A stretch of DNA of 64,000 nt. Source: an uncultured Gemmatimonadales bacterium. GTDB lineage: Bacteria; Gemmatimonadota; Gemmatimonadetes; Gemmatimonadales; GWC2-71-9. Positions within the stretch are counted from its first letter, which is position 1; the number at the start of each line of letters is the position of its first letter. The position numbers were made by a program, and so were the translations under genes. A model generated the notes under the pieces. The model saw only the letters and a list, made by a program, of their open reading frames with translations, made no database searches and was not told the origin of the DNA. Shown here piece by piece: positions 1-40,478 of the stretch. Location of the stretch: NCBI GenBank assembly GCA_963844035.1, contig CAWJMT010000009.1:1-64000 (forward strand), written 5' to 3'.

Positions 1-1304
1 TAGTACAGGAAGTGCCACTGGAGGTTCCAGCTCCAACCATTGCGCCAGTTCTGGTCGAGGCGCAGCGACTGGTTGTTGCTGAAGCCGAACTCCCAGGCAA
101 AGTTCATCGCCTGGCGATAGACGAGCAGCACGTTGTAGCCCAGATCCGACGGGATCGGGTGCACCACGCCGCTGGCATCCGTGAAGTCATACGTCAAGCG
201 CTTGTTGAGGCCGGCGTTGATGCCGTAGGTACGATCGTACCACACGCGCACCGTCGAGCCGATACCGACCAGCGTGCTGCCAGCGCCGTCGTTGTAGGTC
301 TCCTTGTTCCAGGAATAGCCCGTGGCCGAGTTGAAGCTCCAGTGGCCATGGTCCAGGAACCCGAACCGAACGTCAAACAGCGTCCGGGTCGCGTCGCCCA
401 TGCTCTGCGACGTGTAGCCAGCGCCACCCTTCGACAGGGCTGCGACACCAGGCGTACCGCCCGCCGTCGGGGCCATATCGTTGCCCGCCAACATCGAGAA
501 CGTGGGCATCAACCACATACCATCGGTGTTCATCGGCAGGAAGCCGAGCACAACACCGTAGGTCATGCGCTTGTAGTCCAGGTTATCCACGCCCGGGGCG
601 ACCGCGAGCTGTACGACCACGCGATCCTTGACCCATGCCGCAACACCGGTGTGAATGAACTGGCCCTGACCGCCGGCGGGGGTACCGCTGCCGAACGCCC
701 CGAAGAACGGCGAGGTCTGGCCCTGATTGTTGATGAACACCGAGACGATGTTACCGCCCTCGCCCGGGTTCCAGCCCATACGGACGTCGAACTCATCGTT
801 CCGGACCGCGCCGAACTGATTGCCGACGCTGCCGGCCCCGGTGGTCACCGGGTTGAAGTTCGTCGAATACCACTCCGTCCAGATACCGACGTTCTCGGCG
901 ATCGGGCCGGTGTAGTCCCACGCGAGGCTCGAGAACGGATTGCTCGTCACGGGCCCTGCGGTGGGCTCCGGAAGGGTCGGATCACTGGCACCCTTCGACT
1001 GCTGGAACAGGTTGGAACGCATGTGATAGCTCAGGTAGCCCGTCACGCCCAACAGCAGGCGACGGCCGCCCAACGCGCCTTCCTGACCTGCCTCGATCTT
1101 CTCAGCCACCCACGGCGTACGATAGCCGTTCATGCGGAACTTCACCGCGGTGAACGTCAAGTCAGGCGTCGGGGTCCAGGTCACGTGACACTGGTTGCAC
1201 ACCAAACCCGTCTGCCGTACGTACGCGGGGACGCGCGCGCTTGCTACCTGCGCGACGCCAACCCCGAGCGCTGCCAACACAACTGCTCCTCTTAACCAGC
1301 GCAT
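1..1304 (-). CDS. cyc2: Cyc2-like fused monoheme cytochrome c / outer-membrane beta-barrel, copy 1 (apparently intact, ~434 aa; last base of stop codon lies just outside the window)
   Basis: Not in the ORF track; read manually. ATG at 1304 with AAGGAGG SD, then a signal peptide, VPAYVRQTGLVCNQCH...PDL...KFRMNGY (Cyc2-type PxFxRQTG-CxxCH-PxL-FxxxGY pattern) and a C-terminal beta-signal WNLQWHFLY. Confidence 0.75.
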   Translation of the reverse strand, partial: MRWLRGAVVLAALGVGVAQVASARVPAYVRQTGLVCNQCHVTWTPTPDLTFTAVKFRMNGYRTPWVAEKIEAGQEGALGGRRLLLGVTGYLSYHMRSNLFQQSKGASDPTLPEPTAGPVTSNPFSSLAWDYTGPIAENVGIWTEWYSTNFNPVTTGAGSVGNQFGAVRNDEFDVRMGWNPGEGGNIVSVFINNQGQTSPFFGAFGSGTPAGGQGQFIHTGVAAWVKDRVVVQLAVAPGVDNLDYKRMTYGVVLGFLPMNTDGMWLMPTFSMLAGNDMAPTAGGTPGVAALSKGGAGYTSQSMGDATRTLFDVRFGFLDHGHWSFNSATGYSWNKETYNDGAGSTLVGIGSTVRVWYDRTYGINAGLNKRLTYDFTDASGVVHPIPSDLGYNVLLVYRQAMNFAWEFGFSNNQSLRLDQNWRNGWSWNLQWHFLY

Positions 1305-1401
1305 CTAATCCTCCTTGCGTCAGGGAACTTCGGGAACACAAGAAAACAGCAACTGCAACTTACTTCTCCTTCTCCTGAACCACTCTTCACTATCCACTTC
1401 A

Positions 1402-1774
1402 CTACGGCTTGGGATTCTCGGCAAAGTAGGCGATCAGCGACGCAATGTCGGAAGCCCCCAATTTCATGTTCGGCATCTTGACGTTCTTGTTTTCGGCCAA
1501 GATCGCATCCGCGGTCGAGTCGTTTCCGAACATCGCGGTGGGATCCTTGAGCCAGCGCTGCAACCACTCGTTGCTTCGACGTTGCGTAACGCCGCCCAGG
1601 TCCGGGCCCGCCATCTTGCTGGCGGGCTTATTGACTGCGTGGCAAGCACCGCAGCCCTTATTGGCGAAAACGGTCTTGCCCTTCTTCGCATCCTGCGCCT
1701 GAGCGACCGAGGCACTCAATCCGAGAGCCGCTACGACGACCGCGCAAAGCCCGAGCTTTGGAAATACGAATCAT
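1402..1774 (-). CDS. Periplasmic class I monoheme cytochrome c (frameshift in signal peptide)
   Basis: CGACH, GPDL and a distal MPNM motif. Removing one base near 1760 joins ATG 1774 (MIRISKLGLCAVVVAALGL...) to ORF 1402..1719. Confidence 0.85.
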
Positions 1775-2247
1775 GGAGTCGACACCCTTGAAGAGTATGT
1801 TAGGACGTCAAACCGTAACGGGAAACACCGTCCTCAAACTACCCCGTACTCCATAGAATAGCACTAGCCCCGGGCTCAACGCTCGTAGGGCTGCGAGGGT
1901 ACAGTGTCGGTCCCGCAGAACCACTTGTCAATCACCCGTTTGGGCGGGCAAGGACACCGTCTCCATGCCTGCGTCGACCGGGAGATCATAAGCGATTGCT
2001 GGGTAATGATTTAACCACAAGAACCGGGGGTCGGACGAAATGCTTCACTCACCGGTCAAGGATCACCGTGTTGGTGGTCATCCTGGCTTGCGGCTGACCA
2101 CGCCCTCATGCGTCAGGCGTGGCTTCGCATCATCACGCACGGCGAAAGATGCGCAGCAAAGAGCGCATGTCAAGCACTCGTTTCAATTGAATTTCGAATT
2201 TCGCAGCGCTTGCCCGCGTCATTGGGCGCGCGTAGCTTGCGCACCCC

Positions 2248-2978
2248 TTGAGCAGCTCAATGGCAACACCCGCGGTCCGTGTGGTTGGCCTTGCCAAGCG
2301 GTACGGGCACAACTGGGCGCTGCGCGGGCTCGACCTGACAGTGGCGCCTGGCGATGCGGTCGCGCTGCTCGGGCCGAACGGATCGGGCAAGAGCACGCTG
2401 TTTCGGATCCTCGTGACGGCCGCCCGTCCGACGTTCGGCGACGTGCAGGTGTGCGGCGTGCCGATCACCGACGGCGACGCAGTGCGCCGCCACGTCAGCA
2501 TTCTCTCGGATCGCCCTCCCGTTTACAGCGAATTGACGGCCCTCGAGAATCTCAAGTTTGCCGCAGCGATGTACGGGCTGGAATCCTCAGAGAGCGAGCT
2601 GCGAGATGCGCTCGCCGCTGTTGGACTTGCTCGAGCGGCCGATGCCCGGGTCGGCACGTTCTCCCAGGGAATGGGACAGCGTCTCTCGCTGGCGCGGGCA
2701 ACGTTGCAGAACCCCGACCTGATACTGCTCGACGAGCCGTACAACGCCCTCGATGCGGAGGGGCTGCGGCTCGTGGACCAGCTGCTCGCCAGAGTGCGCG
2801 CGGCGGGGAAGACCGCGATCCTGGCCACCCATCATATCGCGAAGGGCCTGGCGTTGTGCGACCGGGTGATCGCGCTGCAAGACGGGCGCGTGGCGTTCGA
2901 TGGGCCGACCGCGGCGTTTTGCCGCGTCGCCACTGGCGCAGGAAGCGGGGGCGTGGGCATGACGCCCTGGCGGCGTGA
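2248..2978 (+). CDS. ccmA: Heme exporter ATP-binding protein CcmA (3' end uncertain, probable frameshift)
   Basis: Walker A GPNGSGKST, FSQGM signature, LLDEP; lies directly upstream of ccmB. Confidence 0.85.
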
Positions 2979-3674
2979 GCTGGCGGCGTGCCTTGGCGGT
3001 CGCGCGCAAGGACCTGTTGATCGAGCGGCGGGCCAAGGCGGCGTTCAATTCGATGGCGTTCTTCGCCGGGATGGTATTGCTCACGTTCGGCTTCGCCCTC
3101 GGCCCCGACGTGCCCGCGGGCGCGGCGCGCGAGGGGACGCTGTTGCAGCAGCTCGCGCCGGGACTCCTCTGGGTGACGATCTTGTTCGCCGGCGTCCTGG
3201 CCCTCGATCGCTCCTTTCAGGTGGAGACTGGAGCGCGGCGGCCTCGACGCCCTGCGGCTCTATCCGGGTGACCGCAAGGCCATCTACCTCGGCAAGTTGA
3301 TCGCCAACGTGACGATCATGTTGATCATGGAGGCGCTGGTCTGCCCCTTCGCCGGCGATCCTCTACAGTCTGGACCTCTGGGGCAAGCTGCCGGGCCTCG
3401 CAGGCGTCGCCATTCTCACCACGATCGGGTTCGCCACCATGGGCACGTTCTACGCGGCCCTCACGGCGAATCTGCGGGCGCGCCAGGTGCTGTTGCCCCT
3501 CCTCATGTTCCCGGTGCTCATTCCGGTGATTCTGGCCGCAGTGAAAGCCACGGGCTGGTCCTGCACGGTGACCCGATGGGCGAGATCGGGTCGTGGGTCA
3601 AGCTCCTGGGCGCCGTAGACATCCTGTTCTTCACCACCTGCCTGCTCGTGTTCGAGTACGTGCTCGAAGAATAG
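2975..3674 (+). CDS. ccmB: Heme exporter permease CcmB (several frameshifts)
   Basis: ARKDLLIERR start, PGLLWV, IYLGK and LLPLLMFPVLIPV segments are spread over ORFs 2975..3271 and 3297..3674. Confidence 0.8.
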
Positions 3675-3829: not shown

Positions 3830-5135
3830 CTAGTACAGGAAGTGCCACTGCAGGTTCCAGCTCCAACCATTGCGCCAGTTCTGGTCGAGGCGCAGCGACT
3901 GGTTGTTGCTGAAGCCGAACTCCCAGGCAAAGTTCATCGCCTGGCGATAGACGAGCAGCACGTTGTAGCCCAGATCCGACGGGATCGGGTGCACCACGCC
4001 GCTGGCGTCCGTGAAGTCATAACTCAAGCGCTTGTTGAATCCGATGTTCGCCCCGTAGGTGCGATCGTACCACAGGCGCACCGTCGTGGCGATACCCGTC
4101 AACGTGCTGCCAGCGCCGTCGTTGTAGGTCTCCTTGTTCCAGGAATAGCCCGTGGCCGAGTTGAAGCTCCAGTGGCCATGGTCCAGGAACCCGAACCGAA
4201 CGTCAAACAGCGTCCGGGTCGCGTCGCCCATGCTCTGCGACGTGTAGCCTGCGCCGCCCTTGGACAGCGCTGCGACGCCCGGCGTACCGCCCGCCGTCGG
4301 GGCCATGTCGTTCCCCACCAACGCCGAGAACGTGGGCATCAGCCACATACCGTCGCTGTTCATCGGCATGACGGCGAGCACCACACCGTAGTTCATCCGC
4401 TTGTAGTCGAGGTTATCCACGCCCGGGCCGACCGAGAGCTGCACGGCCGCGCGATCCTTCACCCATGCCGCGAGACCGGTGTGGATGAACTGGCCCTGAG
4501 CGCCGGAGGGAACGCCGCTACCGAACGCCCCGAAGAACGGCGCGCTCTGGCCCTGATTGTTGATGAACACCGAGACGATGTTACCGCCCGTGCCCGGGTT
4601 CCACCCCATGCGGACGTCGAACTCATCGTTCCGGACGGCGCCGAACTGATTGCCGACGCTGCCGGCCCCGGTGGTCACCGGGTTGAAGTTCGTCGAATAC
4701 CACTCCGTCCAGATACCGACGTTCTCGGCGATCGGGCCGGCGTAGTCCCACGCGAGGCTCGAGAACGGATTGCTCGTCACCGGACCAGCGTCGGGCTCCG
4801 CCAAGCGTCGGATCACTCGCACCCTTCGACTGCTGGAACAGGTTGGAGCGCATGTGATAGCTCAGGTAGCCCGTCACGCCCAACAGCAGCCGACGGCCGC
4901 CCAGCGCGCCTTCCTGGCCTGCCTCGATCTTCTCAGCCACCCACGGCGTGCGATAGCCGTTCAGCCGGAACTTGGTCCCGGTGAACGTCAGATCCGGGTT
5001 AGGGGTCCAGGTCACGTGACACTGGTTGCACACCAAACCCGTCTGCCGGACGAACGCAGGAACGCGCGCGCTTGCGATCTGCGCCACGCACACGCCGAGC
5101 ACCGCCAACACGACTGCTCCTCTTAACCAGCGCAT
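3830..5135 (-). CDS. cyc2: Cyc2-like cytochrome-porin, copy 2 (+1 frameshift near 4800)
   Basis: ORFs 4623..5204 (VPAFVRQTGLVCNQCH...TGTKFRLNGY) and 3830..4822 (barrel, ends WHFLY). Span is 1306 nt, one base longer than copy 1. Confidence 0.75.
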
Positions 5136-5556: not shown

Positions 5557-6862
5557 CTAGTACAGGAAGTGCCACTGCAGGTTCCAGCTCCAACCATTGC
5601 GCCAGTTCTGGTCGAGGCGCAGCGACTGGTTGTTGCTGAAGCCGAACTCCCAGGCAAAGTTCATCGCCTGGCGGTAGACGAGCAGCACGTTGTAGCCCAG
5701 ATCCGACGGGATCGGGTGCACCACGCCGCTGGCGTCCGTGAAGTCATACTTCAAGCGCTTGTTGAGGCCGGCGTTGATGCCGTAGGTACGATCGTACCAC
5801 ACGCGCACCGTCGATGCCGATACCGACCAGCGTGCTGCCAGCGCCGTCGTTGTAGGTCTCCTTGTTCCAGGAATAGCCCGTGGCCGAGTTGAAGCTCCAG
5901 TGGCCATGGTCCAGGAACCCGAACCGAACGTCAAACAGCGTCCGGGTCGCGTCGCCCATGCTCTGCGACGTGTAGCCAGCGCCGCCCTTGGACAGCGCCG
6001 CAACGCCAGGCGTACCGCCCGCCGTCGGGGCCATGTCGTTACCCACCAACACCGAGAACGTGGGCATCAGCCACATACCATCGGTGTTCATCGGCAGGAA
6101 GCCGAGCACAACACCGTAGTTCATCCGCTTGTAGTCCAGGTTGTCCACGCCCGGGGCGACCGCGAGCTGTACGACCACGCGATCCTTGACCCATGCCGCA
6201 ATACCGGTGTGGATGAACTGGCCCTGACCGCCGGCGGGTGCGCCGCTACCGAACGCCCCGAAGAACGGCGAGGTCTGGCCCTGATTGTTGATGAACACCG
6301 AGACGATGTTACCGCCCTCGCCCGGGTTCCAACCCATGCGGACGTCGAACTCATCGTTCCGGACGGCGCCGAACTGATTGCCGACGCTGCCGGCCCCGGT
6401 GGTCACCGGGTTGAAGTTCGTCGAATACCACTCCGTCCAGATGCCGACGTTCTCGGCGATCGGGCCGGTGTAGTCCCACGCAAGGCTGGAGAACGGATTG
6501 CTCGTCACGGGACCCGCGGTGGGCTCCGGAAGCGTCGGATCACTCGCACCCTTCGACTGCTGGAACAGGTTGGAGCGCATGTGATAGCTCAGGTAGCCCG
6601 TCACGCCCAACAGCAGGCGACGGCCGCCCAACGCGCCTTCCTGACCTGCCTCGATCTTCTCAGCCACCCACGGCGTGCGATAGCCGTTCATGCGGAACTT
6701 CACCGCGGTGAACGTCAAGTCAGGCGTCGGGGTCCAGGTCACGTGACACTGGTTGCACACCAAACCCGTCTGCCGCACGAACGCAGGAACGCGCGCGCTT
6801 GCTACCTGCGCGACGCCCACGCCGAGCGCTGCCAACACAACTGCTCCTTTTAACCAGCGCAT
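5557..6862 (-). CDS. cyc2: Cyc2-like cytochrome-porin, copy 3 (+1 frameshift near 5815)
   Basis: ORFs 5744..6862 and 5557..6003; nearly identical to copy 1, with one extra base in the GIGSTVRV region. Confidence 0.75.
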
Positions 6863-7353: not shown

Positions 7354-7761
7354 TCACGGAGCGCGGAACTGACCCATGTAGGCGATGAGCGACTCGATCT
7401 CGCCCGGGGCCAACCGCAGGTTCGGCATCTTGACGTACTTGTACTGGACCAACATCGCGTCCGCGATGTCGTCGGACCCAAACATTGCCATCGGGTCCTT
7501 CAGCCACTGCTTAAGCCACTCGTGGGTGCGGCGGTCAGTGACACCGGCCAGATCCGGGCCTTCAGCCGTGCGCTCTTCCTTCCTGCCGATGGTATGGCAG
7601 AAATTGCAGCCGCGGTTGACGAAGACCTTCCTGCCCTGCTCCGCCTGCGCCGGATCGACACGCGAGTTAGCCTGCGCGAGACTCTGACGCGCGCCGAGGG
7701 TCAGTGCGAACATGGCCACGGCACCGCCACACAGTACCAAACGCGAGATAGGTTTGAACAT
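7354..7761 (-). CDS. Periplasmic class I monoheme cytochrome c, paralog of 1402..1774
   Basis: Signal peptide, CNFCH, GPDLAGVT, WLKDP, VKMPNL. Confidence 0.85.
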   Translation of the reverse strand: MFKPISRLVLCGGAVAMFALTLGARQSLAQANSRVDPAQAEQGRKVFVNRGCNFCHTIGRKEERTAEGPDLAGVTDRRTHEWLKQWLKDPMAMFGSDDIADAMLVQYKYVKMPNLRLAPGEIESLIAYMGQFRAP

Positions 7762-8063: not shown

Positions 8064-8759
8064 GTGAGCACGAAATGGCTGGGCTTTGAACCCCTGGGGC
8101 GGCTCGCAGGCATCCTGGCCATCCCGATCCTCGCCGTGGGGCTGTACCTGGGCCTCGTGTGGGCGCCGACGGACGCGATGATGGGAGACGTCCAGCGGGT
8201 GATGTACGTCCACTTCCCCAGCTGGATCGCGACCGCGCTCGCGTACACGACGGCCTTCGTCTGCAGCGTGCTCTACCTCGCCCGCCGGAGGGAGACCCTG
8301 GACCACGTGGCCCAGGCAGGCGTCGAGGTAGGCGTCCTTTTCAACACGACCGGCCTGATTACCGGCTCGATCTGGGGCCGTCCGACGTGGGGGGTCTGGT
8401 GGACCTGGGACCCGCGCCTGACCACCACCGCAATCATGCTTATCATCTTTGTGGGGTATCTCCTGGTGCGGGCGTTCCTGGACGACCCGGATGCTCGTGC
8501 CCGGGTGGGTGCCCTGGTGGCAATCATGGGGTTCATCACGCTCCCGATCGTGTATTACTCGGTGCAATGGTGGCGGACTCTCCACCAGCCACAGTCGAGT
8601 CCGAACACGGTGGATTCGCGGATGGTCGTCGCGCTGCGCGTCATGATGATCGCATTCACGCTCGTCACCATCTATCTCATGTCGCGACGCGCCGAGGTCG
8701 CCCGGCTGGAGGCGGCCGCGGAGCGGTCGCTGCTCGAGCCCGGAGTGAGCGATGGATAA
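8064..8759 (+). CDS. ccmC: Heme exporter / cytochrome c biogenesis protein CcmC
   Basis: WWD motif WGRPTWGVWWTWDPRL, YVH and LHQ histidines. Confidence 0.93.
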   Translation: MSTKWLGFEPLGRLAGILAIPILAVGLYLGLVWAPTDAMMGDVQRVMYVHFPSWIATALAYTTAFVCSVLYLARRRETLDHVAQAGVEVGVLFNTTGLITGSIWGRPTWGVWWTWDPRLTTTAIMLIIFVGYLLVRAFLDDPDARARVGALVAIMGFITLPIVYYSVQWWRTLHQPQSSPNTVDSRMVVALRVMMIAFTLVTIYLMSRRAEVARLEAAAERSLLEPGVSDG

Positions 8760-8895
8760 CGGGGGATTCGTCTTGGCCGCGTACATCGTTACCGCGGTCC
8801 TGGTCGGTGGGTACACCTGGCGGCTGACACGGCGCCTCGGCCACGCACGGATGGCCGCGAACGGTAAGCCACGGGGGCTTGGGGGCAAACTATGA
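8752..8895 (+). CDS. ccmD: CcmD-like small membrane protein (47 aa)
   Basis: Manual read MDNGGFVLAAYIVTAVLVGGYTWRLTRR...; one TM helix plus a basic tail; overlaps both ccmC and ccmE. Confidence 0.7.
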   Translation: MDNGGFVLAAYIVTAVLVGGYTWRLTRRLGHARMAANGKPRGLGGKL

Positions 8896-9347
8896 AATGG
8901 AACGGGCGTAAGACAACCGTCGCCATCGGCAGCGGCGTGGTCTTGTTGACGTTCGCATACCTGGTCTGGGGCGGTATCGGCAACAACCTCGTCTACTTCC
9001 TGACGCCGACCGAGCTCCTCGCGAAGGGCTCCGCGGTGTATGGGACGAGCGTCAGACTCGGCGGCATCGTGGAAGCCGGCAGCATTCGCTGGGACGCGGA
9101 CAAGCGAGAGCTGCGGTTCCGCCTCGAGGACGACAATGCCCACACGGTCGAGGTCGTGAGCACGGGTGTCCCGCCGCAGATGTTCAACGGCGGCATCGGG
9201 GCGGTGGTCGAAGGAGTCTGGTCGCCTGACGGCGTCTTCCGGTGCCACAACCTGATGGTCAAGCACTCGAACGAGTACAAGGCGCCCATGCCCGGCGACA
9301 AGCCTCCCGCGTACTACCGCGAGCTGTTCCGGAAGCAGCAGTCATGA
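8892..9347 (+). CDS. ccmE: Heme chaperone CcmE
   Basis: YFLTP, VRLGG and the heme-binding KHSNEY (HxxxY) motif. Confidence 0.93.
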   Translation: MKWNGRKTTVAIGSGVVLLTFAYLVWGGIGNNLVYFLTPTELLAKGSAVYGTSVRLGGIVEAGSIRWDADKRELRFRLEDDNAHTVEVVSTGVPPQMFNGGIGAVVEGVWSPDGVFRCHNLMVKHSNEYKAPMPGDKPPAYYRELFRKQQS

Positions 9348-12003: not shown

Positions 12004-12005
12004 CC

Positions 12006-30687: not shown

Positions 30688-32289
30688 TCATCCTCGCCCG
30701 CCTCGCTGCCGCTTTTGGGCCCGCCCCGCAACCAGGAAGCCCAGACCCAGCGTGATCAACATCGCGATCACGGGAGAAATGAATGCCCCGGGCGGCGTGG
30801 GTTGATCGAGTGCAAGGAAGTACCAGGTACTGACGGCCATCCGTCCACCCCGCTCGGCGTTGGACCCGTCCCACGCGAACAACGCGAGCGGGATAGGCCG
30901 GCCAAGAGCGAACTGAAGTTCGTTGGCAGAGTCGGCGGTCGCAAGGGCGCGGGTAAAGGTCACACGCCACTGCCCATGGTCAAATACCGCCTGGGTCGCC
31001 GGTGCTTTGGCGGTGGGGAGCGTGTCAAACCGCTCAATCCCCCGGGCCGTGCCCGCAATTCCGCGCCGGGGGGCACTCGACCAGCGCCACTGATAGACCG
31101 GGTCGGAGCTGCCACCCATCAGGAAGTAGGGTCGCTCGGTCCCCTCAGGGACCTTCATGGGGAACTGGACCGCCACCTGGTCAGGCCACTGTCCCACTAC
31201 GGCGGGGACCGAATCGTCGCTCATCATCCCGGCCAGGATCGCGCTTGGTGAACTGATTCCAGGCCGTGTCCGGGCTCTGCGAGCGGTCATCCCAGGTCAC
31301 CCGCATGGCGATCGACTTGCCGTCATGGACGGCCTGCACCCAGACCGCGGTCACCGCCGGCGCGAACCAGCGCGGCTTCCGGATGATCTGTCCCACGAGC
31401 GGGACGTAGTAGCTCTCGACGTGGCTCCACGCGGAGTCGTCCGGGGACTCGGGCAGTGCGCCCGTCATCTGGCGGGCGTGAATCACGTCTTTCACCTCGG
31501 GCGGCTTTTCGGGCGACAGGCTCCGGACGTACTTGGCGCCCCGCCACATCTCGTCCTCGGTGATGAACTTTTGGTCGAGCAGATCGGAGAACGAGGGCAT
31601 CGGCGTGCCGTCGACGCCCGTACGCAGCCGGTGGTAGATGTCCTCGGCGGTCGGGACCGCCGCGGAACAGCCAGTTCTGATGCAGGTTCGCCGCGAAAAT
31701 CGCGTGGCCGGCATCGTCCTTGAGCGTCGGGGCCGAGGGCCCGTCGCCGCGTCCCTGGTCGCCGTGACACTTCCGGCACTTGATCGAGTCGGCTATCTGT
31801 TGCCCGATCTTCAGCGCTTCTTCGCGCGAGCCACTCGCCGCCCGGCTCCGAGGCGAACTTCAACGGCTCCACGTGCTGGCTCGTGTCGGCAAAGAACGAG
31901 GAGAACGTCTTGATGTACGCCACGAGGTCGCGGCGTTCGCCGTCCGACAGGCGCTCCTTCCAGGCCGGCATCGCCGTCCCGGGAAGGCCCTCGTCGATCG
32001 CGCGCAGGATGTCGGCATCGGTCGGGATCTGGCCGCTCGCGGTCGTACGGATCTTGTAGATCGCACCCGTGAAGTCGCGGGGACGCGGCTGCATGTACGT
32101 CGCCGCGTAGCCCTGTCCATCCCCGGCGTCGCCATGGCAGCCAGCACACCAGCTGACATAGACGGCTTTGCCCTTCGTCGTGTCCTGGGCCGCGAGGGCG
32201 GGCGAGGACGCGAACAGCAACGCCGCGCCGAGGCCGACCGCCCAACCGCCCAGCCGCCTAGTGGCCGCCACTTTTCTCTCCTCCCTCAT
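30688..32289 (-). CDS. Diheme cytochrome c fused to an ethylbenzene-dehydrogenase-gamma-like (DOMON-like heme b) domain with C-terminal TM (several frameshifts)
   Basis: CAGCH and CRKCH (manual read near 31770), PRPRDF, GTAMP/GTPMP; HDGKSIAM..TWDD, DQVAVQFP, PYFLMG, FAWDGSN.ER. Confidence 0.75.
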
Positions 32290-33064
32290 GCTCCTCCTCC
32301 ATGACCCGCGGCTTCCACCCTGTCTGCTGGTAGATGAAAATGATCACCTGCCAGATCTCGCGCTCGGTGAGGAAATCTTCCCACTTCGGCATCGCCGAGT
32401 TCCAGGGCGTGGCCTCGCGCGGCAGTCCGGGGCCGCCCTTCGCCACGCGCCAGAAAACGAAGCTCTCGCTGAGCTGGGCGATGGTGCCGTTGTCCTGGAA
32501 GTTTGCCGGGAGCGGATTGAAGCCGTGCGCATAGTGGCCCAGTCCATCCAGGTGGTCGCCATGGCACGCCATGCAGTTCTGATAGTAGATGCGCTTGCCT
32601 GCTTCGGTATGCGCGGCGAGCGACTCGGCATGTTCCCGCAGGGGGTTCTTGAGCGCCTTCATGTTGAGCGACTTGCCGCGGAAGGTGATCTCGGTCGGCG
32701 GCGCCGGGTGAATCGAGCGCAGGTTGGGCGGCGCGGACACGGTCGTGCGGGCCTGCGCCAGGGTGATCCACCCGATCAACAACGTCAAGACCCCGAGCAC
32801 GCCGCCGCGCAGCATCCGGAGCCGGGGCTCGATCAGCAGCGCGGCGATCGGCTCCTGGAAACGCGCCCAGCGGTCCTCGCTGTCGCTGACGTAGATCAGC
32901 ACGCCCACCAGGACGGTCAACATGTACTGCAGGGCGACGCTCTTCGGGACGATCGCGCTCCCGGGAAGTGCGGGAACGAGCACTTCGATTACGAGGAAGG
33001 CAAGCACCATGATCCCCAAGGCCTGCCAGAACGGATGAGCGAGGTAGCCTCGGTTCTTGGTCAT
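32286..33064 (-). CDS. Membrane-anchored monoheme cytochrome c
   Basis: Three N-terminal TM helices, RSIHPAPP, CMACHG, WNSAMP. Confidence 0.88.
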
Positions 33065-33858
33065 TTGTGACTCGCTAGGTAGGCAACCAGCGCCTCGAGC
33101 TGCGTCGCGTTCATCCGGGTTCCGAAGTCCTTGGGCATGACGCCCGCCATGGTTTCGAAGCCTTTCGTGATGGACCACTCCGGGTCGAGGATCTTGTGGC
33201 GGATCGACGCCGCATCGCGTCGCGCGCCGAGGTGGGCCAGGTCGGGACCGAGCTCACCACCCTCACCGTCGACCTTGTGGCAGTTACCGCACTCCGCCTC
33301 TTTGATGATCGCTTTGGGATCGGTGCTGCCACCGGCAAACGCGGCCGGTGCGCCCCCTGCTGCCGGAGCTGCCCCACCAGCCGGCGCAGCGGACTCGAAG
33401 TCCGCGGCAGTCACGTCCACGGTGCCCCCGAGCGACTCGAGGTACGCGACCAGGGCCCAGATCTGCTCGGGAGGCATGAGCTTCGTGATCACCGGCATGA
33501 TCGGCTGGTAGCCTGGTACGACATAATCCGCGGGCTCGGCCAGCGATTCGTACAGATACTTCTTGCAGTTCTCTCCCGATTCGCGCTTGCCGCAGCGCGC
33601 GCCGATCGGCCCGGTGCCCTTTTCGTCAGTGAGCAGGTTCGGAGCGCGCGACCCGAGGCCGTGACACGCGGTACAGCCACCGACGCCGTTGAACACCTTC
33701 TCTCCCGCAGCGGCAAGCTGCTCGGGGGTGGCGTTCGCACCGAGGCTCAGCTTCTGCGGCACCTCGGACTGCATCTGCGGAATCTTGTTGCAGATCAGCG
33801 TATACACGAACAGCGTGCCGAGCACGACGCCGATCACCTTCAGGTTAGTGGCCCACAT
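33061..33858 (-). CDS. Membrane-anchored diheme cytochrome c
   Basis: CTACH and CGNCH, each with a downstream MP. Confidence 0.9.
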   Translation of the reverse strand: MWATNLKVIGVVLGTLFVYTLICNKIPQMQSEVPQKLSLGANATPEQLAAAGEKVFNGVGGCTACHGLGSRAPNLLTDEKGTGPIGARCGKRESGENCKKYLYESLAEPADYVVPGYQPIMPVITKLMPPEQIWALVAYLESLGGTVDVTAADFESAAPAGGAAPAAGGAPAAFAGGSTDPKAIIKEAECGNCHKVDGEGGELGPDLAHLGARRDAASIRHKILDPEWSITKGFETMAGVMPKDFGTRMNATQLEALVAYLASHK

Positions 33859-35554
33859 TGCTGCCTCCCTTCCCTGCGGTGCCGAACGTGGACTTTTCGG
33901 CGAGCCCGCCGAGCCAGAACACGAAGCCGACCAGGCTGAGGAAGATCAGCACGCTGAGGCTGATCATCTTGGAGGCGTAGCCGAGCGCGGGTGTCGCCGC
34001 ATACTTGCTCGTGTCTTCCATCACCTGCCACACGTGCCAATACTGCCGGATCCCCGAGCGGGCGAAGCCCATGAGCGCCATGAGCCACGTGAACGTGACG
34101 GCGAGGATGAAGAGTGCATACTGGGACCGTGCGGGCATCTTGCCCCACTGGATTTCGCCGGCCGACTTGGCGCCGCGTCCCATCATGCTGTCGATCACGG
34201 TGACGAACACGATGCAGCACAGCACCGCGCCCACCTGGTAGACGCTATAGCCGATCCGGACGATCGCCTCGACGAAGTAGCCCCGGATCCCGTAGAAGAG
34301 CACGATCGCGGCGGCGATGGCAAACATGGCGCCCTGAATCTTGGTCCCCGTTTTCTCCCATGGCACGACGAGCTGTTTGTTGCCGCGGCGATACATGAGG
34401 AACGAGAGGAACGTCGCCAGGATCATCAGATTGACGGCGGTGTTCTTGGCGCTCATCACGCCGAGCGCGCCGAGCAACGGATGGTGCGAGCCCCCCATCG
34501 CGGCGAGCTCCTTGGTGTCCGCGATCATCGTATGCGGTGTTCCCCACACGATCGCGCCGAGCACGAGCACGATGAGCAGATACTTGATGTACGGGCGGAA
34601 CCGCTCGGCGCCTGGGATACGGCCCATGCCGATCCAGAGGTAGTAATTGCCGGCCAGGAACAGCACAGCGATGAGGAACGCCTGGACCACCCAGAGCCAG
34701 CTCATGAAGCCGCCCATCATGGTGATGCCCATCGACTGATCGTACATGTAGATCTCGCGGCCCAGCCAGTACCCGGCGAAGGGCAGGACGATCAGGGCGG
34801 CCATGGCGATGAAGTTGCCGACGTAGCCCATCCAGTCGTAGTGCGCGCGCTCTTCGTCGGTCTTGGCGGCGAGGAACCGATAGCTTGCATACGCCGCCGC
34901 GATCGCGCCGCCGAACACGACGTTCGCAATGATCCGGTGGATGTTGATCGGCATCCAGCTCGCGTTGGCGATGGCGTGCCAGAGTTTGATCGTGGTGGGG
35001 TCGGTGCTCGCGTCGATGTCGCGCGGGGGCGTCATCATGTAAGTGAGCCACGAATTCGCGATGAGCATCACGACCGTGCCCCACACGTTGAGCATGATGC
35101 CGAGCACCCAGTGCACGATCTTGGCGCGGCCGTACTTCCAGCGGTCCCACCCGTAGTAGTACAGGTAGAGGGTGAAGGACTCGAAGAAGAACAGCCCGGC
35201 GTACAGCCACATCGACGGTCCGAAGATCGTCGTCAGGTACGCCCAGAACTTGGCGTACAGGGTGGCGAGCAGGAACACGAGGATCGCCCCCCAAATCGCG
35301 GTGGCGCTGTACGCCACCAGCAACAGGCGGGTGAATTCCTTCGCGAGGCCGTCGTACTTCGATTCGCCGCCGAAAATCCCGATCGCCTCCGCCACGACGG
35401 CAAACATCGGCACGCCGAGGACGAAGGCGGCGAACATCAGGTGCACCTGGGCAGCGATCCAGATCGCTCCCCGTGACCCGACCACCGGGAACTCCCCGTA
35501 GGAGCGGATCGAATCCGCGACCGCGGTGATCATCAATAGGCCGTCAGCCATCAA
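33845..35554 (-). CDS. Cytochrome bd-like (CydA superfamily) membrane protein
   Basis: QVHLMFAAFVLGVP, FFFES..LY.YYYGW, IANSW..YMMTP, PINIHR, MGFARS; about 13 TM helices; no adjacent cydB. Confidence 0.75.
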   Translation of the reverse strand: MMADGLLMITAVADSIRSYGEFPVVGSRGAIWIAAQVHLMFAAFVLGVPMFAVVAEAIGIFGGESKYDGLAKEFTRLLLVAYSATAIWGAILVFLLATLYAKFWAYLTTIFGPSMWLYAGLFFFESFTLYLYYYGWDRWKYGRAKIVHWVLGIMLNVWGTVVMLIANSWLTYMMTPPRDIDASTDPTTIKLWHAIANASWMPINIHRIIANVVFGGAIAAAYASYRFLAAKTDEERAHYDWMGYVGNFIAMAALIVLPFAGYWLGREIYMYDQSMGITMMGGFMSWLWVVQAFLIAVLFLAGNYYLWIGMGRIPGAERFRPYIKYLLIVLVLGAIVWGTPHTMIADTKELAAMGGSHHPLLGALGVMSAKNTAVNLMILATFLSFLMYRRGNKQLVVPWEKTGTKIQGAMFAIAAAIVLFYGIRGYFVEAIVRIGYSVYQVGAVLCCIVFVTVIDSMMGRGAKSAGEIQWGKMPARSQYALFILAVTFTWLMALMGFARSGIRQYWHVWQVMEDTSKYAATPALGYASKMISLSVLIFLSLVGFVFWLGGLAEKSTFGTAGKGGSNVGH

Positions 35555-36828
35555 CCGTTAGCCTCCGTGAAGAACGGCCGCCGCTTGGAGAAATCAATCG
35601 GCATCGCGCTGCGTACCTCCGCCAACATGTCGAGCGTGATTTCGCGCACGCCCTGCTTGCGCGCAAAGTCTTCCATCCGCTGCATCACGACGCCGCGCAC
35701 GAACGAGGGAATGCGCTGCATGCGCTCCCGCGCCGCCGGGCTCCAGGCGAGTACCGGCTCGAAGTCCGCCCCGTACATCACGGCCCGTGCCGGCTCGATC
35801 AGCGTCGCGCCGGGCCGCGGCTCGTAGTCGCACGACGGATCCTCGGCCAGCACATCACCGGTGACTGCAAATGCGCGCGCGCGGCAACCGCCGCATACCT
35901 GCCGGTATTCGCAGCTGCCGCACTTCCCACCCAGGGTGCCCTCGCGCAGCTGGCGGAACAGCGGCGACGCGCGCCAGATCTCGGCGAACGACCGCGTGCG
36001 CAGGTCCCCGGCGACCTCCGGCATGTAGGGACAGGGCGTGAGCTTGCCGTCGGGGGTGATGCGGCAATACTGCGTCCCGCACGGGCAGCGCGTCTCGTAA
36101 TTGAGGACCGGCGACTCGGGGTCCGCCTGGTGGACGTGCCGCATGAAATGCGGCGCGCACTTCGAGCGGACCAGCATGCGGCCGCGGAAGTCGCGCTGCC
36201 AGCGGGCCAGGTCGGCGAGCACGGACTCGTATTCGGAGGGCGAGAGGTCGGTCAGTCCCGCTCCCCGCCCCGTCGGCACCAGGAAATAGCAATTGAAGGC
36301 GACCGCCCCCTGCTCGGCCGACCATTGCACCAACCGCGACAGCTCATCGCGATTGCCCTTGGTGACGGACGTCTGAATGATGAAGTCGAGCTTGTGCGAG
36401 CGGAGCCGGCCCAGAGCCGCCTGCGTATCCGCGAGCGATCCCTTGAGGTGGCGAAAGTTGTCGTGATACGACGGGCGCAGCGAGTCGACGCTCACCGCAA
36501 CGCCGCGTACGCCAGCCTCCTTGAGGGCGGCGATCCGCTCGTCGGTGAGCAGCGTGCCGTTCGTCCCCACCACGACCGTCGCGCCCCGCTCGGAGGCGCG
36601 CCGGGCGATCACGGTCAGATCGTCGCGCAGCAACGGCTCGCCGCCGGAGAGGATCAGCAGGGGGGAGGGATTCACCGCGAGCAGCTCGTCAACGATGCGC
36701 AAGCAGGTCGCCGTGTCGAGCTCCGACGTCGCCTGCTCCGTCGGGCCGGCGGAGATATAGCAGTGGGCGCACTCGAGATTGCAGCGACGAGTGAGATTCC
36801 ACGCAACTACGTGCGGTACGAAGTCCAC
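35551..36828 (-). CDS. Radical SAM/SPASM protein (AhbC/AhbD/NirJ-like) with C-terminal PCP_red-like domain
   Basis: VAWNLTRRCNLECAHC, SGGEP, CPCG..YCRI...PCPY, KCGSC...CGGCRARA; tail WS..ARERMQRIPSFVRG. Confidence 0.85.
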   Translation of the reverse strand: MDFVPHVVAWNLTRRCNLECAHCYISAGPTEQATSELDTATCLRIVDELLAVNPSPLLILSGGEPLLRDDLTVIARRASERGATVVVGTNGTLLTDERIAALKEAGVRGVAVSVDSLRPSYHDNFRHLKGSLADTQAALGRLRSHKLDFIIQTSVTKGNRDELSRLVQWSAEQGAVAFNCYFLVPTGRGAGLTDLSPSEYESVLADLARWQRDFRGRMLVRSKCAPHFMRHVHQADPESPVLNYETRCPCGTQYCRITPDGKLTPCPYMPEVAGDLRTRSFAEIWRASPLFRQLREGTLGGKCGSCEYRQVCGGCRARAFAVTGDVLAEDPSCDYEPRPGATLIEPARAVMYGADFEPVLAWSPAARERMQRIPSFVRGVVMQRMEDFARKQGVREITLDMLAEVRSAMPIDFSKRRPFFTEANG

Positions 36829-38844
36829 TCAGTCGCCCGCCTGCTCCTGCAGCATCCGCTCCATGGCTTCCTTCGCCTCTTCCGGCTTCATCCCCTTGAA
36901 CTCGACCGGACACTTGCCGGCCTTTTCTTCGATGTCCCGGATGGGGCAGCGCGTGATCCCCTGCGCCTTGGCTTCTTCGATGAAGGCCCGCATCTCGGGC
37001 GTCATGCCGTCGCGTCCCTCGGCTTCGGCGCGGATCTGCTTGGCGCGGAGCTCGGTGAACATGACCATCATCGTCTCGACGTCGAACTCGTCGGCCTCGA
37101 TCATCTTCTGCTTGTTTTCGTCCATCACCATGGTGGTGACGCGCCAAATGTCGTGGCTGCGTGCGAACCGCTCGACGGTGTTGCGCGCCAGCGGCCGCGC
37201 GATCAGCGGAACCGCCTGCAGGCGCTGCCACCCTTCCTCCGTCCAGATGATCGGATCGGTGGCCACGCGCGCCCGCCGGCTCACGTTTCCGGTCACCGGA
37301 CACTTCACCTCAATCTCCGCGGTGGCCGGCACGAGATCGCTGTCGTGCCCCTGGACCTTGGTGGTCTGGAGCTGCTCGGTCGCCTTCTCCTCCGCGAGCA
37401 CGATCTCCTCTGCCGTGCCGATGCCCATGATGAGCTGCATATGGGTCGGCAGCAGCTTCTTGATCGCTTCGTCGAGCCACTTGTTGGTGATGATGGTTGC
37501 GGCCCCGCCGGTCTGCTCGAGCGTGTACTCCTCGACGGCGCGCCGCGCGATGCCCTGCGCGAACGGCGGCACGCGAAGGATGCGCACTTCGGCATCGGGC
37601 GCCCACGGCATGCCCGCCTGGCCATCTTCTTCAATCCAGGGAATGTCTTCCGGACGGATGCCCACGGTGCCGATCATCAGGGTGTTGCACGGCGCGAGAC
37701 GAACCAGGTTCTCCGCCTGCGAGCCCAGCTGGGTGTTTTCGATCCGGTGCGCTCCATGGCGCGACAGGACGAGCAGTGACGGCTTGATCTCCTCCGCCCA
37801 CTGCATCACCACCTGGAAGGGCTTCCCAACGAGGATCTGCGTCTTGATGGGAACGTCGGGGAACTCCTGGGCCATCACCTCGGCGCGCTTCAGGTTCGCC
37901 TGGCAGAGCTTGAGCAGCCCCTTGTCGATGATGTTGTTGTGGAGCTCCTCCTGCTCCTCGAACTTGAACACCTTCGAGGCCTGGTAGGACAGCACGTCTT
38001 TGATGTTGTTGAAGACGACGTGGTGATACTCCACGTCGAATGCGCTGCAGACATAGAGCGAGCCGCCGAACTCCTTGGCCAGCTCGAGTGCGACGCGCAT
38101 CGCCTTGTAGCTGTAGGACGAGCCGTCCACGCACACCATGTAGCGACCATCCGCGAACGGCTTGTCGTCGCGGACGATCAGCAGATCCTTTTCGATGCCG
38201 CGCAGGATGCGCGCCACGACCCCACCGAGCTGCGAGAACGGCTGACGGCCGAGGCCGTGCGCGCCGATCGTGAGCAGGTCATACTGGCGACCCGACGTCC
38301 CCACGAGACGCGCCGCGGTGTCTTCCTCCTCCGCGATGAGCCGGCCGTTTTCGCCGACCTGGACGTCGCTGCGCACGGTGGCGCCGCCGTCGTATGTGGC
38401 GGCGCGATTTGGATCGAACCCGATCAGCCCGGGCAAGCGGCCCGCGCCGCGGTTCACTTCCGCGACGATTTCCTCATAGTTGATCCCCTCGAGCAGCTGG
38501 CGCGTCAACGCCACGCCCGCCGCCTCGCACCGCTTCCCGACCTGATCAAGGAAGCTGTCGGCGATGAGCTGCAGGCCCTTCTCGATCAGCTTGTCGTGGA
38601 TCTTGCGCTGCTTCTTGATTTCTTCCGGCGTCTGAAACTGCGCGGGGAGACCGGTCTCGAGTTGGCGGAAGCGAACGTCGTGGAGGCGTGCGGCGTAGAC
38701 ATGGTTACCGGTGATGCGCCCGCCGGACTGACGACACAGCTCAAGCGCCCGATCAATCGCCCAATCCGAATGCTGTGAATTGTCGACGGGCGCAAATATC
38801 TCGCGATACACCGGCACCTCGGGCGCTAGAGTCATGTCGGGCAC
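36829..38844 (-). CDS. Tandem universal-stress-protein domains plus two PCP_red-like domains
   Basis: PVDNS.HS, IGAHG, CVDGS..SY, LSRHG; WAPDAEVRILRVPPFAQG and WTEEGWQRLQAVPLIARP repeats. Confidence 0.8.
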   Translation of the reverse strand: MPDMTLAPEVPVYREIFAPVDNSQHSDWAIDRALELCRQSGGRITGNHVYAARLHDVRFRQLETGLPAQFQTPEEIKKQRKIHDKLIEKGLQLIADSFLDQVGKRCEAAGVALTRQLLEGINYEEIVAEVNRGAGRLPGLIGFDPNRAATYDGGATVRSDVQVGENGRLIAEEEDTAARLVGTSGRQYDLLTIGAHGLGRQPFSQLGGVVARILRGIEKDLLIVRDDKPFADGRYMVCVDGSSYSYKAMRVALELAKEFGGSLYVCSAFDVEYHHVVFNNIKDVLSYQASKVFKFEEQEELHNNIIDKGLLKLCQANLKRAEVMAQEFPDVPIKTQILVGKPFQVVMQWAEEIKPSLLVLSRHGAHRIENTQLGSQAENLVRLAPCNTLMIGTVGIRPEDIPWIEEDGQAGMPWAPDAEVRILRVPPFAQGIARRAVEEYTLEQTGGAATIITNKWLDEAIKKLLPTHMQLIMGIGTAEEIVLAEEKATEQLQTTKVQGHDSDLVPATAEIEVKCPVTGNVSRRARVATDPIIWTEEGWQRLQAVPLIARPLARNTVERFARSHDIWRVTTMVMDENKQKMIEADEFDVETMMVMFTELRAKQIRAEAEGRDGMTPEMRAFIEEAKAQGITRCPIRDIEEKAGKCPVEFKGMKPEEAKEAMERMLQEQAGD

Positions 38845-39010
38845 ACACCGCTCTCTCGCCGAGCTCCAGACGAACTCGGTCCTGACAGAGATCCAGCAGC
38901 TGTGTGCTCAACCGCGTCGACCCGTGGGCCGCCGCATGAGCTATGGTTCGATTTTGACCGCCGCGAGTATGCTCCGTGCAGCCTGACCTGTCAAGGCTCG
39001 CGTCCGCGGT

Positions 39011-39256
39011 TCATTTGGGGACGATCTGGCTCCCGGATTCGTCCCACACGGTGATCGCATCCACCGGACACGAATCGCAGGCGCGCAGCAGGCGCTCCCG
39101 CTCGACGGCCTCAGGATCTGTGAAGACAGCGATCGTATCTTCATCCAACTTGAATGCTTCGGGTGCTTCCTTCACACAATCCCCGAAGCCCACACACTGC
39201 TCGCGGTCGATCACTACCCGGAGGCCGTGCACCACGCGCTCGACCAGCTGGCTCAC
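39011..39256 (-). CDS. Small ferredoxin (single cluster, 3Fe-4S/4Fe-4S type)
   Basis: IDREQCVGFGDC..APEAF...ACDSCPVDAI. Confidence 0.88.
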   Translation of the reverse strand: MSQLVERVVHGLRVVIDREQCVGFGDCVKEAPEAFKLDEDTIAVFTDPEAVERERLLRACDSCPVDAITVWDESGSQIVPK

Positions 39257-39699
39257 ATCCCCTCCAGGCCGAGCTCCGTGCGCGCGGTGTCCATCACCGC
39301 CGGTGTGATCTCGGTGATCCCGTGGTCCCGGGCGTATTCCGTGTAGATCCGCTTCACCATACCCTTCACGAAGTTCGGTACCTTGGCCAGCCGCTCCACG
39401 GCATCCGCGGACCACGTCACGCCCAAGACGGTTTCCGGCCCCCGGCTCTCGCCGAACGCGTTGTCCTTTCCGGTCGCGACGGTGCTGCGGACCATTTCCA
39501 TCGGTTGCTCGGGCACCGTGCGGCCGCCGATCACCACGCCGAGGGAGCTGACCAGCTGGGTCTCGAACGGGTTCGTGAGCATGCCGACCCGGCGACCGCA
39601 GCCGGGACAGGAGAATGCGATCGCGAGCGTGCCGTCCCCCGGGAGCTCGCGCTCCTCGAACGTCATCTGCCGGTCGCACTCAATGCAGAGAAATTTCAC
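39253..39699 (-). CDS. CxxC/CxxC zinc-ribbon plus PCP_red-like domain protein
   Basis: CIEC...CPGC, MLTNPFETQ, WSADAVERLAKVPNFVKGM. Confidence 0.8.
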   Translation of the reverse strand: MKFLCIECDRQMTFEERELPGDGTLAIAFSCPGCGRRVGMLTNPFETQLVSSLGVVIGGRTVPEQPMEMVRSTVATGKDNAFGESRGPETVLGVTWSADAVERLAKVPNFVKGMVKRIYTEYARDHGITEITPAVMDTARTELGLEGM

Positions 39700-40478
39700 A
39701 GGCGTGCTGCGAGGTCGGACCAGACGGCATCCGACGGGTGAAACGGGATGCGGGCCAGGACCGGGATAGCGAACTCCGCTGCCAGCGAATCGGCGGCATC
39801 GCCCCGAAACTGCTCCCCGACCATGTTCTCGACGATGCCGAGCGCCGGTGCGCCGCGGTCCACCGCCGCCCGCAACGCGCGCCGCACGGCGTCAGCCGAC
39901 TCCGGGGTCGGAATCGTCACGGTGACCACCGCCGGGGCGGTCGGCAACAGGGTGGCGAGCTCCGCGAACCGCGCGATTCCGGGCGGCAAGTCGACGAACA
40001 GCACATCGAGCGCCCCCCACGCAACGTCCGACAAGAACTCCCGCAGCGCGGCCACCTCCTGGGCTCCGCGCCAAATGAAGTTTTCGGCCTCCGGGCCGCG
40101 AAACGCCAACGGGCGGCCGTCCTCCACGAGCTGCGCCATCGAGATCAGGCGTACCCCATCCGCGGCCGTCGCTGGAACCACGGCATCGTCACGCACGGTC
40201 AGCGGGATCCGGGGCGCGTCGAGCAGGCGTGCGGCGGTGGGGCCATTCAGGTCGGCATCGAGCACCCCGACCGCGCGCCCGGCGCGTGCGCAGGCACGGG
40301 CCAAGTGGGCCGTCACAAAGCTCTTGCCCACGCCACCCTTGCCGCTCATGACGGCCACGACACGGCCCACACCGACCAGCCGGGCGCCAACCCTGGCCCG
40401 TTGGGCCACGACCTGGTCCAGCAGCCCCGATGCGTCCGGGTCGGTCAGATCGTGATAGGTGCGAATATTGAGTGGCAT
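39696..40478 (-). CDS. mrp: Mrp/ApbC/NBP35-family P-loop ATPase (Fe-S carrier-like)
   Basis: SGKGGVGKS, LDADLNGP, WG.LD.L.VDLPPG, GIVENM. Confidence 0.85.
   Translation of the reverse strand: MPLNIRTYHDLTDPDASGLLDQVVAQRARVGARLVGVGRVVAVMSGKGGVGKSFVTAHLARACARAGRAVGVLDADLNGPTAARLLDAPRIPLTVRDDAVVPATAADGVRLISMAQLVEDGRPLAFRGPEAENFIWRGAQEVAALREFLSDVAWGALDVLFVDLPPGIARFAELATLLPTAPAVVTVTIPTPESADAVRRALRAAVDRGAPALGIVENMVGEQFRGDAADSLAAEFAIPVLARIPFHPSDAVWSDLAARL

Follow-up and report, generated by a model that had tools for sequence, protein, structure and literature searches.

Cyc2, a cytochrome c, rusticyanin and an aa3 oxidase are encoded together in a single operon, the rus operon, of Acidithiobacillus ferrooxidans. 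In the Mn(II)-oxidising Ca. Manganitrophus noduliformans, the candidates put forward for Mn lithotrophy include both Cyc2 and TO_1 (10.1101/2021.11.15.468770), and the bd-like proteins of the OR-N class are thought to draw electrons from cytochrome c, a role that is putative (PMC10839748, PMC12342949). Both Cyc2, in metagenome-assembled genomes (MAGs; PMC9769843, PMC11316326), and the Calvin cycle (PMC9802188) have already been reported, each separately, from the Gemmatimonadota, a phylum that is abundant in soils and mostly treated as heterotrophic. The present subject is a stretch of 64,000 nucleotides ("the window"; contig CAWJMT010000009.1, positions 1 to 64,000) from an uncultured Gemmatimonadales bacterium. 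Its first 40,478 positions had been read, in what is called here the original prediction, as one supercluster carrying electrons from Cyc2-like porins through periplasmic cytochrome c to an aa3 oxidase, with a bd-like protein as a quinone-linked branch. The parts listed in that prediction are all present within 1-40478, and they form two separable modules that flank a lepB/tkt housekeeping block. The closeness of the two modules is largely a matter of inherited position, and the proposal that they work in series in this organism, as an electron-uptake respiratory chain from metal(II) to O2, is in our judgment evenly poised.

Distribution and position of the two modules

Module B (1-13322) consists of three Cyc2-like genes, two genes for soluble cytochromes c and a cytochrome c maturation (Ccm) system I; beyond it come a lipoprotein array, the block of lepB, a TolB-like gene, a gene for a 105-amino-acid protein and tkt, and then module A (22135-40478), the bd-like/aa3 operon. 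Their distribution was followed in a phylum sample of 301 Gemmatimonadota genomes and a family sample of 401 genomes. The bd-like gene, used as the marker of module A, is present in 86 of the 301 phylum genomes, and the full-length Cyc2 family in eight; all eight also carry the bd-like gene, and 78 of the 86 bd-like genomes are without the Cyc2 family. This complete nesting of Cyc2 inside module-A genomes (8/8) broke in the larger sample, where 19 of the 401 genomes have the Cyc2 family and 14 of the 19 also have the bd-like gene. Matches to the Cyc2-like heme region only occur in 79 further genomes, 22 of which carry the bd-like gene, no enrichment over the 86 of 301 found overall; these phylum counts include G174 as one weak match.

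Gene order tells a similar story. The cyc2 genes lie beyond lepB in G004, G091, G140, G086, G317, G346 and G469, and the G091 layout is that of the window, the distance between cyc2 and the bd-like gene being 22 kb. A Cyc2 pair adjoins lepB/tkt in G317, 82 kb from the bd-like gene, and in G469, for which no bd-like gene was found, and module A and lepB occur without this cyc2 in G074, G078 and G123; because of these layouts the lepB/tkt block, not the oxidase, is taken to be the anchor of module B. One arrangement points toward linkage, that of G002, in which a divergent cyc2 lies directly behind hemY on the same strand as the operon. No cyc2 was found within 10 kb of any of 80 bd-like loci, but these flanks are too short to reach the cyc2 site. 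Module A serves many Gemmatimonadota as a general respiratory unit, module B is an accessory input to it in some lineages, and the term "supercluster" was overstated, since the bd-like/aa3 operon is common without the Cyc2 family and cyc2 tracks lepB/tkt. The original prediction had named universality of the operon in relatives lacking cyc2, together with an absence of co-regulation, as the outcome that would tell against it, and half of that outcome is seen: the operon is widespread in such genomes and is not universal in them.

Proteins of the two modules

The features of the window are given below; gene families were scored with Pfam and NCBIfam models.

3..1304, minus strand: Cyc2-like fused monoheme cytochrome-porin, copy 1; 434 amino acids, intact up to the contig end, CxxCH at 36-40 preceded by PAYVRQT
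1402..1774, minus strand: soluble monoheme cytochrome c, upstream of copy 1 (PF00034, E 8e-10); frameshift in the signal peptide, the indel absent in soil contigs
2248..3674, plus strand: ccmA and ccmB (PF00005, PF03379); ccmB frameshifted
3830..5135, minus strand: Cyc2-like copy 2; 91-93% amino acid and 92.0% DNA identity to copy 1, one frameshift near 4801
5557..6862, minus strand: Cyc2-like copy 3; 98% amino acid and 96.6% DNA identity, one frameshift near 5812
7354..7761, minus strand: second soluble monoheme cytochrome c (PF00034, E 3e-9)
8064..13322, plus strand: ccmC, D, E, F, G and H/I (Pfam/NCBIfam; ccmD by inspection)
13422-17753: lipoprotein-like gene array, about eight paralogous small genes in tandem, many frameshifted
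17854..22051, strand not assigned: lepB, TolB-like, 105-amino-acid protein and tkt, the housekeeping anchor between the modules
22135..25309, minus strand: hemY-like (frameshifted), hemE and hemQ-Rieske fusion (Pfam/NCBIfam)
25577..26428, minus strand: cyoE/ctaB heme o synthase (TIGR01473 above cut-off)
26422..29909, minus strand: A-family cytochrome c oxidase coxB, coxA, coxC and coxD (TIGR02866 above cut-off; TIGR02891, 629 bits)
29920..30652, minus strand: predicted type-1 copper cupredoxin with C-terminal beta-sandwich (His98, Cys136, His139, Met142); frameshift after the signal peptide
30688..32289, minus strand: diheme cytochrome c fused to an EB_dh/NxrC-type heme b domain (PF09459; TIGR03477 E 3e-22, below cut-off); C-terminal anchor, frameshifted
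32258..33064, minus strand: monoheme cytochrome c with three N-terminal membrane helices
33061..33858, minus strand: membrane-anchored diheme cytochrome c
33845..35551, minus strand: bd-like (OR-N-type) membrane heme protein of 568 amino acids (PF01654, E 5e-21, N-terminal half only)
35551..40478, minus strand: AhbD/NirJ-like radical SAM-SPASM protein, Usp-Usp-PCP_red protein, ferredoxin, PCP_red protein and Mrp ATPase, conserved accessory genes

The window is G000:C9:1-64000, where G000 is its genome (3.47 Mb in 39 contigs, 83.7% complete), and close homologues of the window's genes carry Gemmatimonadales or Gemmatimonadota labels. Single-base frameshifts are frequent in this assembly and relatives show intact open reading frames (ORFs). 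Soil sequencing runs hold near-identical contigs (for example, 714 bases with four differences in X11), and because the extra bases at 1756/1760, 4801 and 5812 are missing from soil contigs, these are likely sequencing errors. The neighbourhood of eno, a septum gene and a cupredoxin gene is repeated on contigs C35, C3 and C28, and one cytochrome c locus is present twice (C13 and C32), which suggests strain-duplicated contigs in the bin.

The bd-like protein aligns with solved CydA over its N-terminal half and was compared by global profile alignment (probability 99.6) with ten canonical CydA proteins from relatives. In the profile alignment the quinol-site residues Lys252 and Glu257 are replaced by Met274 and Met279; Met279 is invariant in 61 bd-like homologues, as are the retained His37 (His19/21), Glu124 (Glu107/108) and His205 (His186), and in 5DOQ the aligned positions are His21 for His37 and His186 for His205. 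The equivalent of Glu99 is Tyr117, that of Glu445 was not seen, and there is no CxxCH in the subunit and no CydB partner in the operon map. The quinol site, Glu99, Glu445 and CydB that mark a canonical bd quinol oxidase (qOR) are therefore all missing, and the combination of no Lys252/Glu257, a retained His19 ligand, no CxxCH and no CydB fits OR-N as defined by Murali, Gennis and Hemp (10.1101/2021.01.16.426971). A simple hydropathy scan gave 12 transmembrane helices (the expectation for OR-N1/N2 is 14), and the nearest Atlas clusters are mostly Nitrospirota (score 0.94-0.97). Because the quinol-site residues are replaced, as in cytochrome-c-fed OR-N, the quinone-linked branch of the original prediction is unsupported. 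Some genomes (e.g., L217, G147:C1) have a second bd-like module, about 52% identical and with the same cytochrome partners, beside which no aa3 genes were seen. A 755-amino-acid bd-like/diheme fusion (P0058) is a single member that lacks the cytochrome's anchor; it is likely an assembly artefact and was not taken as evidence of fusion.

Module A is a single minus-strand run in the order mrp, PCP_red, ferredoxin, Usp, radical SAM, bd-like, diheme c, monoheme c, diheme c/heme b, cupredoxin, coxBACD, cyoE, a small ORF, hemQ-Rieske, hemE and hemY; neighbouring genes between Usp and hemY are -29 to +58 bp apart, and 199 bp separate Usp from the gene before it. Of the 80 loci, 29 were too short and were dropped; in each of the 51 that extend 9 kb or more downstream, the eight genes from the diheme cytochrome to coxD are all present. 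They include a fourth redox subunit that the original prediction overlooked, the diheme c/EB_dh heme b fusion at 30688-32289, which is a single ORF in all five relatives examined. The cupredoxin has no match to a Pfam cupredoxin model, and 61 of 62 homologues retain its His...Cys-x2-His-x2-Met motif. The six His ligands, the HPEVY Glu, the D- and K-channel motifs and the CuA site that mark an A-family oxidase were all found; heme A synthase lies elsewhere in 5/5 genomes. The accessory block travels with the bd-like gene (radical SAM in 79/80 loci, Usp in 77/80) and the radical SAM, Usp-PCP_red, ferredoxin and Mrp proteins may build a modified heme for OR-N, a role for which our literature search found no paper. 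The hemQ/chlorite-dismutase-Rieske fusion (24233-25309) is kept in close relatives.

In module B, the three Cyc2-like copies are 92.0-96.6% identical at the DNA level and are therefore regarded as distinct genes; a fourth copy, 42% identical, lies on contig C5. Assemblies of relatives often break at these genes, as expected of repeats. The proteins match no Pfam or NCBIfam model and a Cyc2 profile gave no matches in a PDB sequence search, and relatives numbered 182 by word search and 41 representatives by profile search (E<=1e-30). Copy 1 was modelled by AlphaFold2 from a 94-sequence alignment (pLDDT 82.5, pTM 0.79, 16 long strands), which replaced a single-sequence fold of pLDDT 29. Structure comparison places the model closest to the 16-strand porins PorB, OprP and OprO (Z 21.5-22.6; OprP Z 21.6, rmsd [root-mean-square deviation] 3.4, 302 residues aligned; OprO Z 21.5), and Keffer et al. 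(10.1101/228056) likewise derived a 16-strand barrel for Cyc2 from OprO/OprP templates. Copy 1 has the single N-terminal CxxCH of Cyc2 (CNQCH at 36-40) and, at 434 amino acids, exceeds the minimum of 365; its signal peptide was judged from the sequence and the N-terminal helix of the model. Because the motif upstream of the heme is a variant of the published consensus, these proteins are called Cyc2-like; FARQT itself is found in 8 of the 79 family members having the heme motif, and in the members from genus g39.

The Ccm genes comprise, by Pfam, ccmA, B, C, E, F, G and H and a TPR (CcmI-like) part, with ccmD called by inspection alone. They are a second Ccm copy in G000, the other set being on C4/C31, and cyc2 adjoins a ccm cluster also in G004, G009, G071 and G366. 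This gene dosage, four Cyc2-like copies and a second Ccm set beside those in the window, was counted in favour of a working chain. Strong hairpin terminators lie at 3708-3741, 5435-5468 and 7279-7314, between cyc2 copies and cytochrome genes; an Rfam scan of 1-42000 gave no matches and a promoter scan of 1-8100 chance-level results only. Paralogues of the lipoprotein array occur on six further G000 contigs, and similar genes flank cyc2 in G009 and G346. An uncharacterised secreted protein (motif WWQ.DPHY.HLW.TTCP), a possible unrecognised member of the Cyc2 module, adjoins cytochrome c/cyc2 genes in several genera (L145-L146, L148, L153, L229, L232-L234), sometimes with a TonB-receptor-like gene.

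Proposed electron flow, carbon fixation and the alternatives

The downhill chain of the original prediction, from a Cyc2-like protein through cytochrome c to the aa3 oxidase, is still the best reading in view of the Calvin cycle, the bc complex, alternative complex III (ACIII) and the 14/19 co-occurrence; its supercluster and quinone branch lack support as worded. The whole is a candidate chain for Fe(II)/Mn(II) oxidation with facultative autotrophy and would be a variant of known parts. Each electron-transfer step in the scheme is inferred from directly observed gene content, gene order, residues and distribution. In the outer membrane, the Cyc2-like porins would take electrons from a reduced metal in solution, most likely Fe(II) and next Mn(II). 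The soluble cytochromes c encoded beside them, with the extra Ccm set as their maturation system, would ferry the electrons over the periplasm to the membrane cytochromes and cupredoxin of module A, through which they would reach CuA of the proton-pumping aa3 oxidase. The scheme gives the bd-like protein the role of a second heme site fed by cytochrome c, probably a low-oxygen O2 reductase and not a quinol oxidase, and the bc complex or ACIII with complex I would push some of the electrons uphill for the Calvin cycle.

The check for bc1/ACIII and carbon fixation elsewhere in the genome, proposed with the original prediction, was positive. G000 has a Rieske/cytochrome b-c complex, ACIII, and a complex I with three antiporter-type subunits, and at G000:C37:221396-226897 (L167) the gene order is prk-cbbL-cbbS-cbbX-prk with two phosphoribulokinases (PRK) of the PRK07429 type, that is, form I RbcL, RbcS and PRK with cbbX adjacent. 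RbcL is frameshifted in G000 and intact in seven of seven relatives; its top PDB matches, at 551-592 bits before a drop to about 500, are presumably red-type RuBisCO. No catalytic subunit of NXR or of a type II dimethyl sulfoxide (DMSO) reductase was found in G000, whose molybdopterin-family matches are ACIII ActB and NuoG. Contig C36 of G000 also carries a porin-multiheme cluster with 20- and 16-heme proteins (15636-24844, L044) and a 7-heme protein and barrel adjoining the Rieske/cytochrome b-c complex (166558-175497, L045), further candidate extracellular electron conduits.

Form I RbcL is found in 8 of the 301 phylum genomes (ten matches at 29-32% identity were set aside as RuBisCO-like), namely in six of the eight Cyc2-family genomes vs 2 of the 293 others, kin that are not independent. 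No weight was placed on Fisher P values, which ignore kinship. In the family sample it is found in 14 of 401 genomes, and the eight with RbcL at 87% identity or more all have both the Cyc2 family and the bd-like gene. Genomes with both Cyc2 and RbcL are six of the seven of the window's genus (the exception, G005, is 71% complete), G086, which alone among the eight g30 genomes has either Cyc2 family or RbcL, and the distant G071. They fall at three places on a bd-like tree that comes from a quick, unfinished search, and their distribution could reflect one gain with losses (the Cyc2 tree gave long-branch warnings and missed 3 of 17 rows). G071 (99% complete) and G086 (97%) have RbcL and PRK, and searches of both for NiFe hydrogenase, SoxY, a photoreaction centre and above-cut-off CoxL found none.

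Several observations weigh against a metal-fed chain through both modules. Five of the 19 Cyc2 genomes, all of genus g39 and 82-94% complete, have no bd-like gene. RbcL was not found in 11 of the 19, six family-sample genomes with RbcL at 59-70% identity have no Cyc2 family, G287 (RbcL 82-85%) has neither module, and the larger family sample brought no new double-positive genus. In G086 a PQQ alcohol dehydrogenase scores above cut-off and there are formate-dehydrogenase-like genes, so methanol or formate are also possible donors. H2 or methanol could feed the Calvin cycle, given that an uptake-type NiFe hydrogenase is encoded in G000 and that, of 22 genomes tested, 21 gave PQQ alcohol dehydrogenase matches (19 above cut-off; G000 is the exception). 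G000 further encodes a second aa3 oxidase and a canonical bd, and Cyc2 electrons therefore need not reach module A. We know of no biochemistry for this Cyc2 subfamily or for OR-N proteins. Where the strict motif is AxPxFAR[Q/K][T/Y], the window copies read PAYVRQT or PAFVRQT, and their PxL lies six residues past the CxxCH, vs the published four; divergent Cyc2 proteins are graded least certain in function (10.1101/228056).

A hint, no more, of cyc2 copy 1 transcription in soil comes from RNA contigs of three soil studies, with a summed depth of 307-3752 over copy 1, 49-162 over the soluble cytochrome bins and 0-14 over ccmC-I, in runs picked using a stretch other than the cyc2 region. One DNA run gave depths of 1.6-2.3 over copy 1 and 0-7 over the cyc2 and cytochrome bins. 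Such contig depth cannot rank genes. It is a total over organisms and repeats, many contigs have two possible placements, and porins are in any case often highly expressed. For module A, the soil runs contain a fraction of just 0.00-0.18 of the sequence words of the stretch, which was given no weight as evidence.

The alternative that survives best, though we consider it unlikely, is that the modules are inherited neighbours with no dedicated link: module A would serve an ordinary organotrophic or H2-fed chain, the Cyc2-like proteins metal detoxification or uptake or a minor lithoheterotrophic supplement, and the Calvin cycle would run on H2, methanol or formate or act as an electron sink. The 78 module-A genomes without the Cyc2 family fit this well, as do the cyc2 positions in G317 and G469, the lack of any bd-like association among the matches confined to the N-terminus, the hydrogenase in six of the seven genomes of the window's genus and the report of Cyc2 from heterotrophic Gemmatimonadota MAGs (PMC9769843). 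It accounts less well for a RuBisCO type that occurs only with both modules in the family sample, G086 included, for a hydrogenase that does not follow RuBisCO, and for the G002 cyc2, co-directional with module A. An improbable alternative is that the bd-like protein and its cytochromes form an alternative complex III with a new quinone site, feeding aa3 from quinol or running uphill from Cyc2 electrons. For the Nitrospina protein such a role has been put forward on condition that an alternative quinol site exists (PMC3578206), the bd-like gene shares an invariant operon with aa3 as ACIII often does, and Tyr117 in place of Glu99 and the missing Glu445 equivalent weaken the O2-reductase reading as well; against it stand the replacement of both quinol-site residues, the invariance of Met279, of Glu124 and of His37 (the His19-type active-site ligand), and the bc complex and ACIII that the genome already has. 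Electron export by the Cyc2-like proteins (Fe(III) or humic reduction at low oxygen), unrelated to the O2 end, is very improbable: direction cannot be read from annotation (PMC11316326) and G000 has the 16- and 20-heme clusters and a bc complex beside a 7-heme protein and barrel, but characterised Cyc2 proteins are oxidases (10.1101/228056; PMC13647500), a single periplasm-side heme fits dissolved substrates, and the co-occurrence is with an O2 reductase and RuBisCO.

Beyond the chain in this one organism, a soil Gemmatimonadales genus and at least two other lineages may be facultative Fe(II)/Mn(II)-oxidising chemolithoautotrophs in which Cyc2-like genes have been amplified, an OR-N/aa3 hybrid forms the terminal supercomplex and the Calvin cycle is of the red type, a wider proposal that is put forward tentatively and that we lean somewhat against. 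If it is true, Fe(II)/Mn(II) oxidation in soil, together with CO2 fixation in the dark, can be assigned to a specific genus and gene set, and a major soil phylum joins the metal-oxidising autotrophs. The OR-N module, which has never been purified, would then sit between a testable donor (Cyc2) and a standard oxidase, making OR-N function testable.

Comparison with described systems

Our literature search found no description of an OR-N/aa3 operon in the Gemmatimonadota, nor of one together with Cyc2 and the Calvin cycle, although the supplements of Murali et al. may list the operon; the available portions of PMC12638822, PMC13264449, PMC11312239 and PMC13647500 have no direct overlap with the present finding. 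The closest counterpart of module A is TO_1 of Ca. Manganitrophus, in which a bd-like oxidase is accompanied by two cytochromes c and a CISM-type periplasmic cytochrome b; the genome also encodes Cyc2, and metal oxidation from the outer membrane to O2 was proposed (10.1101/2021.11.15.468770). Module A has these components, its heme b domain falling below the TIGR03477 cut-off; it differs in being fused into an aa3 operon with a cupredoxin and in the fusion of the heme b domain to a diheme cytochrome c. The organisms differ as well, since a Calvin cycle is found here in place of the reductive tricarboxylic acid (rTCA) cycle, complex I has three antiporter-type subunits and no extras, and the phylum is another one.

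The bd-like protein resembles OR-N1 and OR-N2 in its lack of quinol-site residues and of CydB and in its retained His19 ligand (10.1101/2021.01.16.426971). In the NXR-linked cluster of Nitrospina, Nitrospira and Kuenenia there are likewise mono- and diheme cytochromes c, an NxrC-like heme b protein and a cupredoxin alongside (PMC3578206), but no NXR was found in G000, and here a single bd-like gene lies in an aa3 operon with the radical SAM/Usp/Mrp block. The Cyc2-like proteins share with the Cyc2 family of Keffer et al. (10.1101/228056) the single N-terminal CxxCH, a length above 365 amino acids, the 16-strand OprO/OprP-like barrel and a related upstream motif, and depart from it in the P-x-[FY]-V-R-Q-T variant, a PxL two residues further downstream, and four copies with their own Ccm set.

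As in rus of A. ferrooxidans, Cyc2, a cytochrome c, a cupredoxin and an aa3 oxidase are present in one organism (a rusticyanin match was not found). Unlike rus, they do not form one operon: the halves are split by divergent ccm, lipoprotein and tkt genes, there is an extra OR-N module, and the two halves segregate independently across genomes. Each part is known in kind, and the link between Cyc2 and the Calvin cycle is the result added here.

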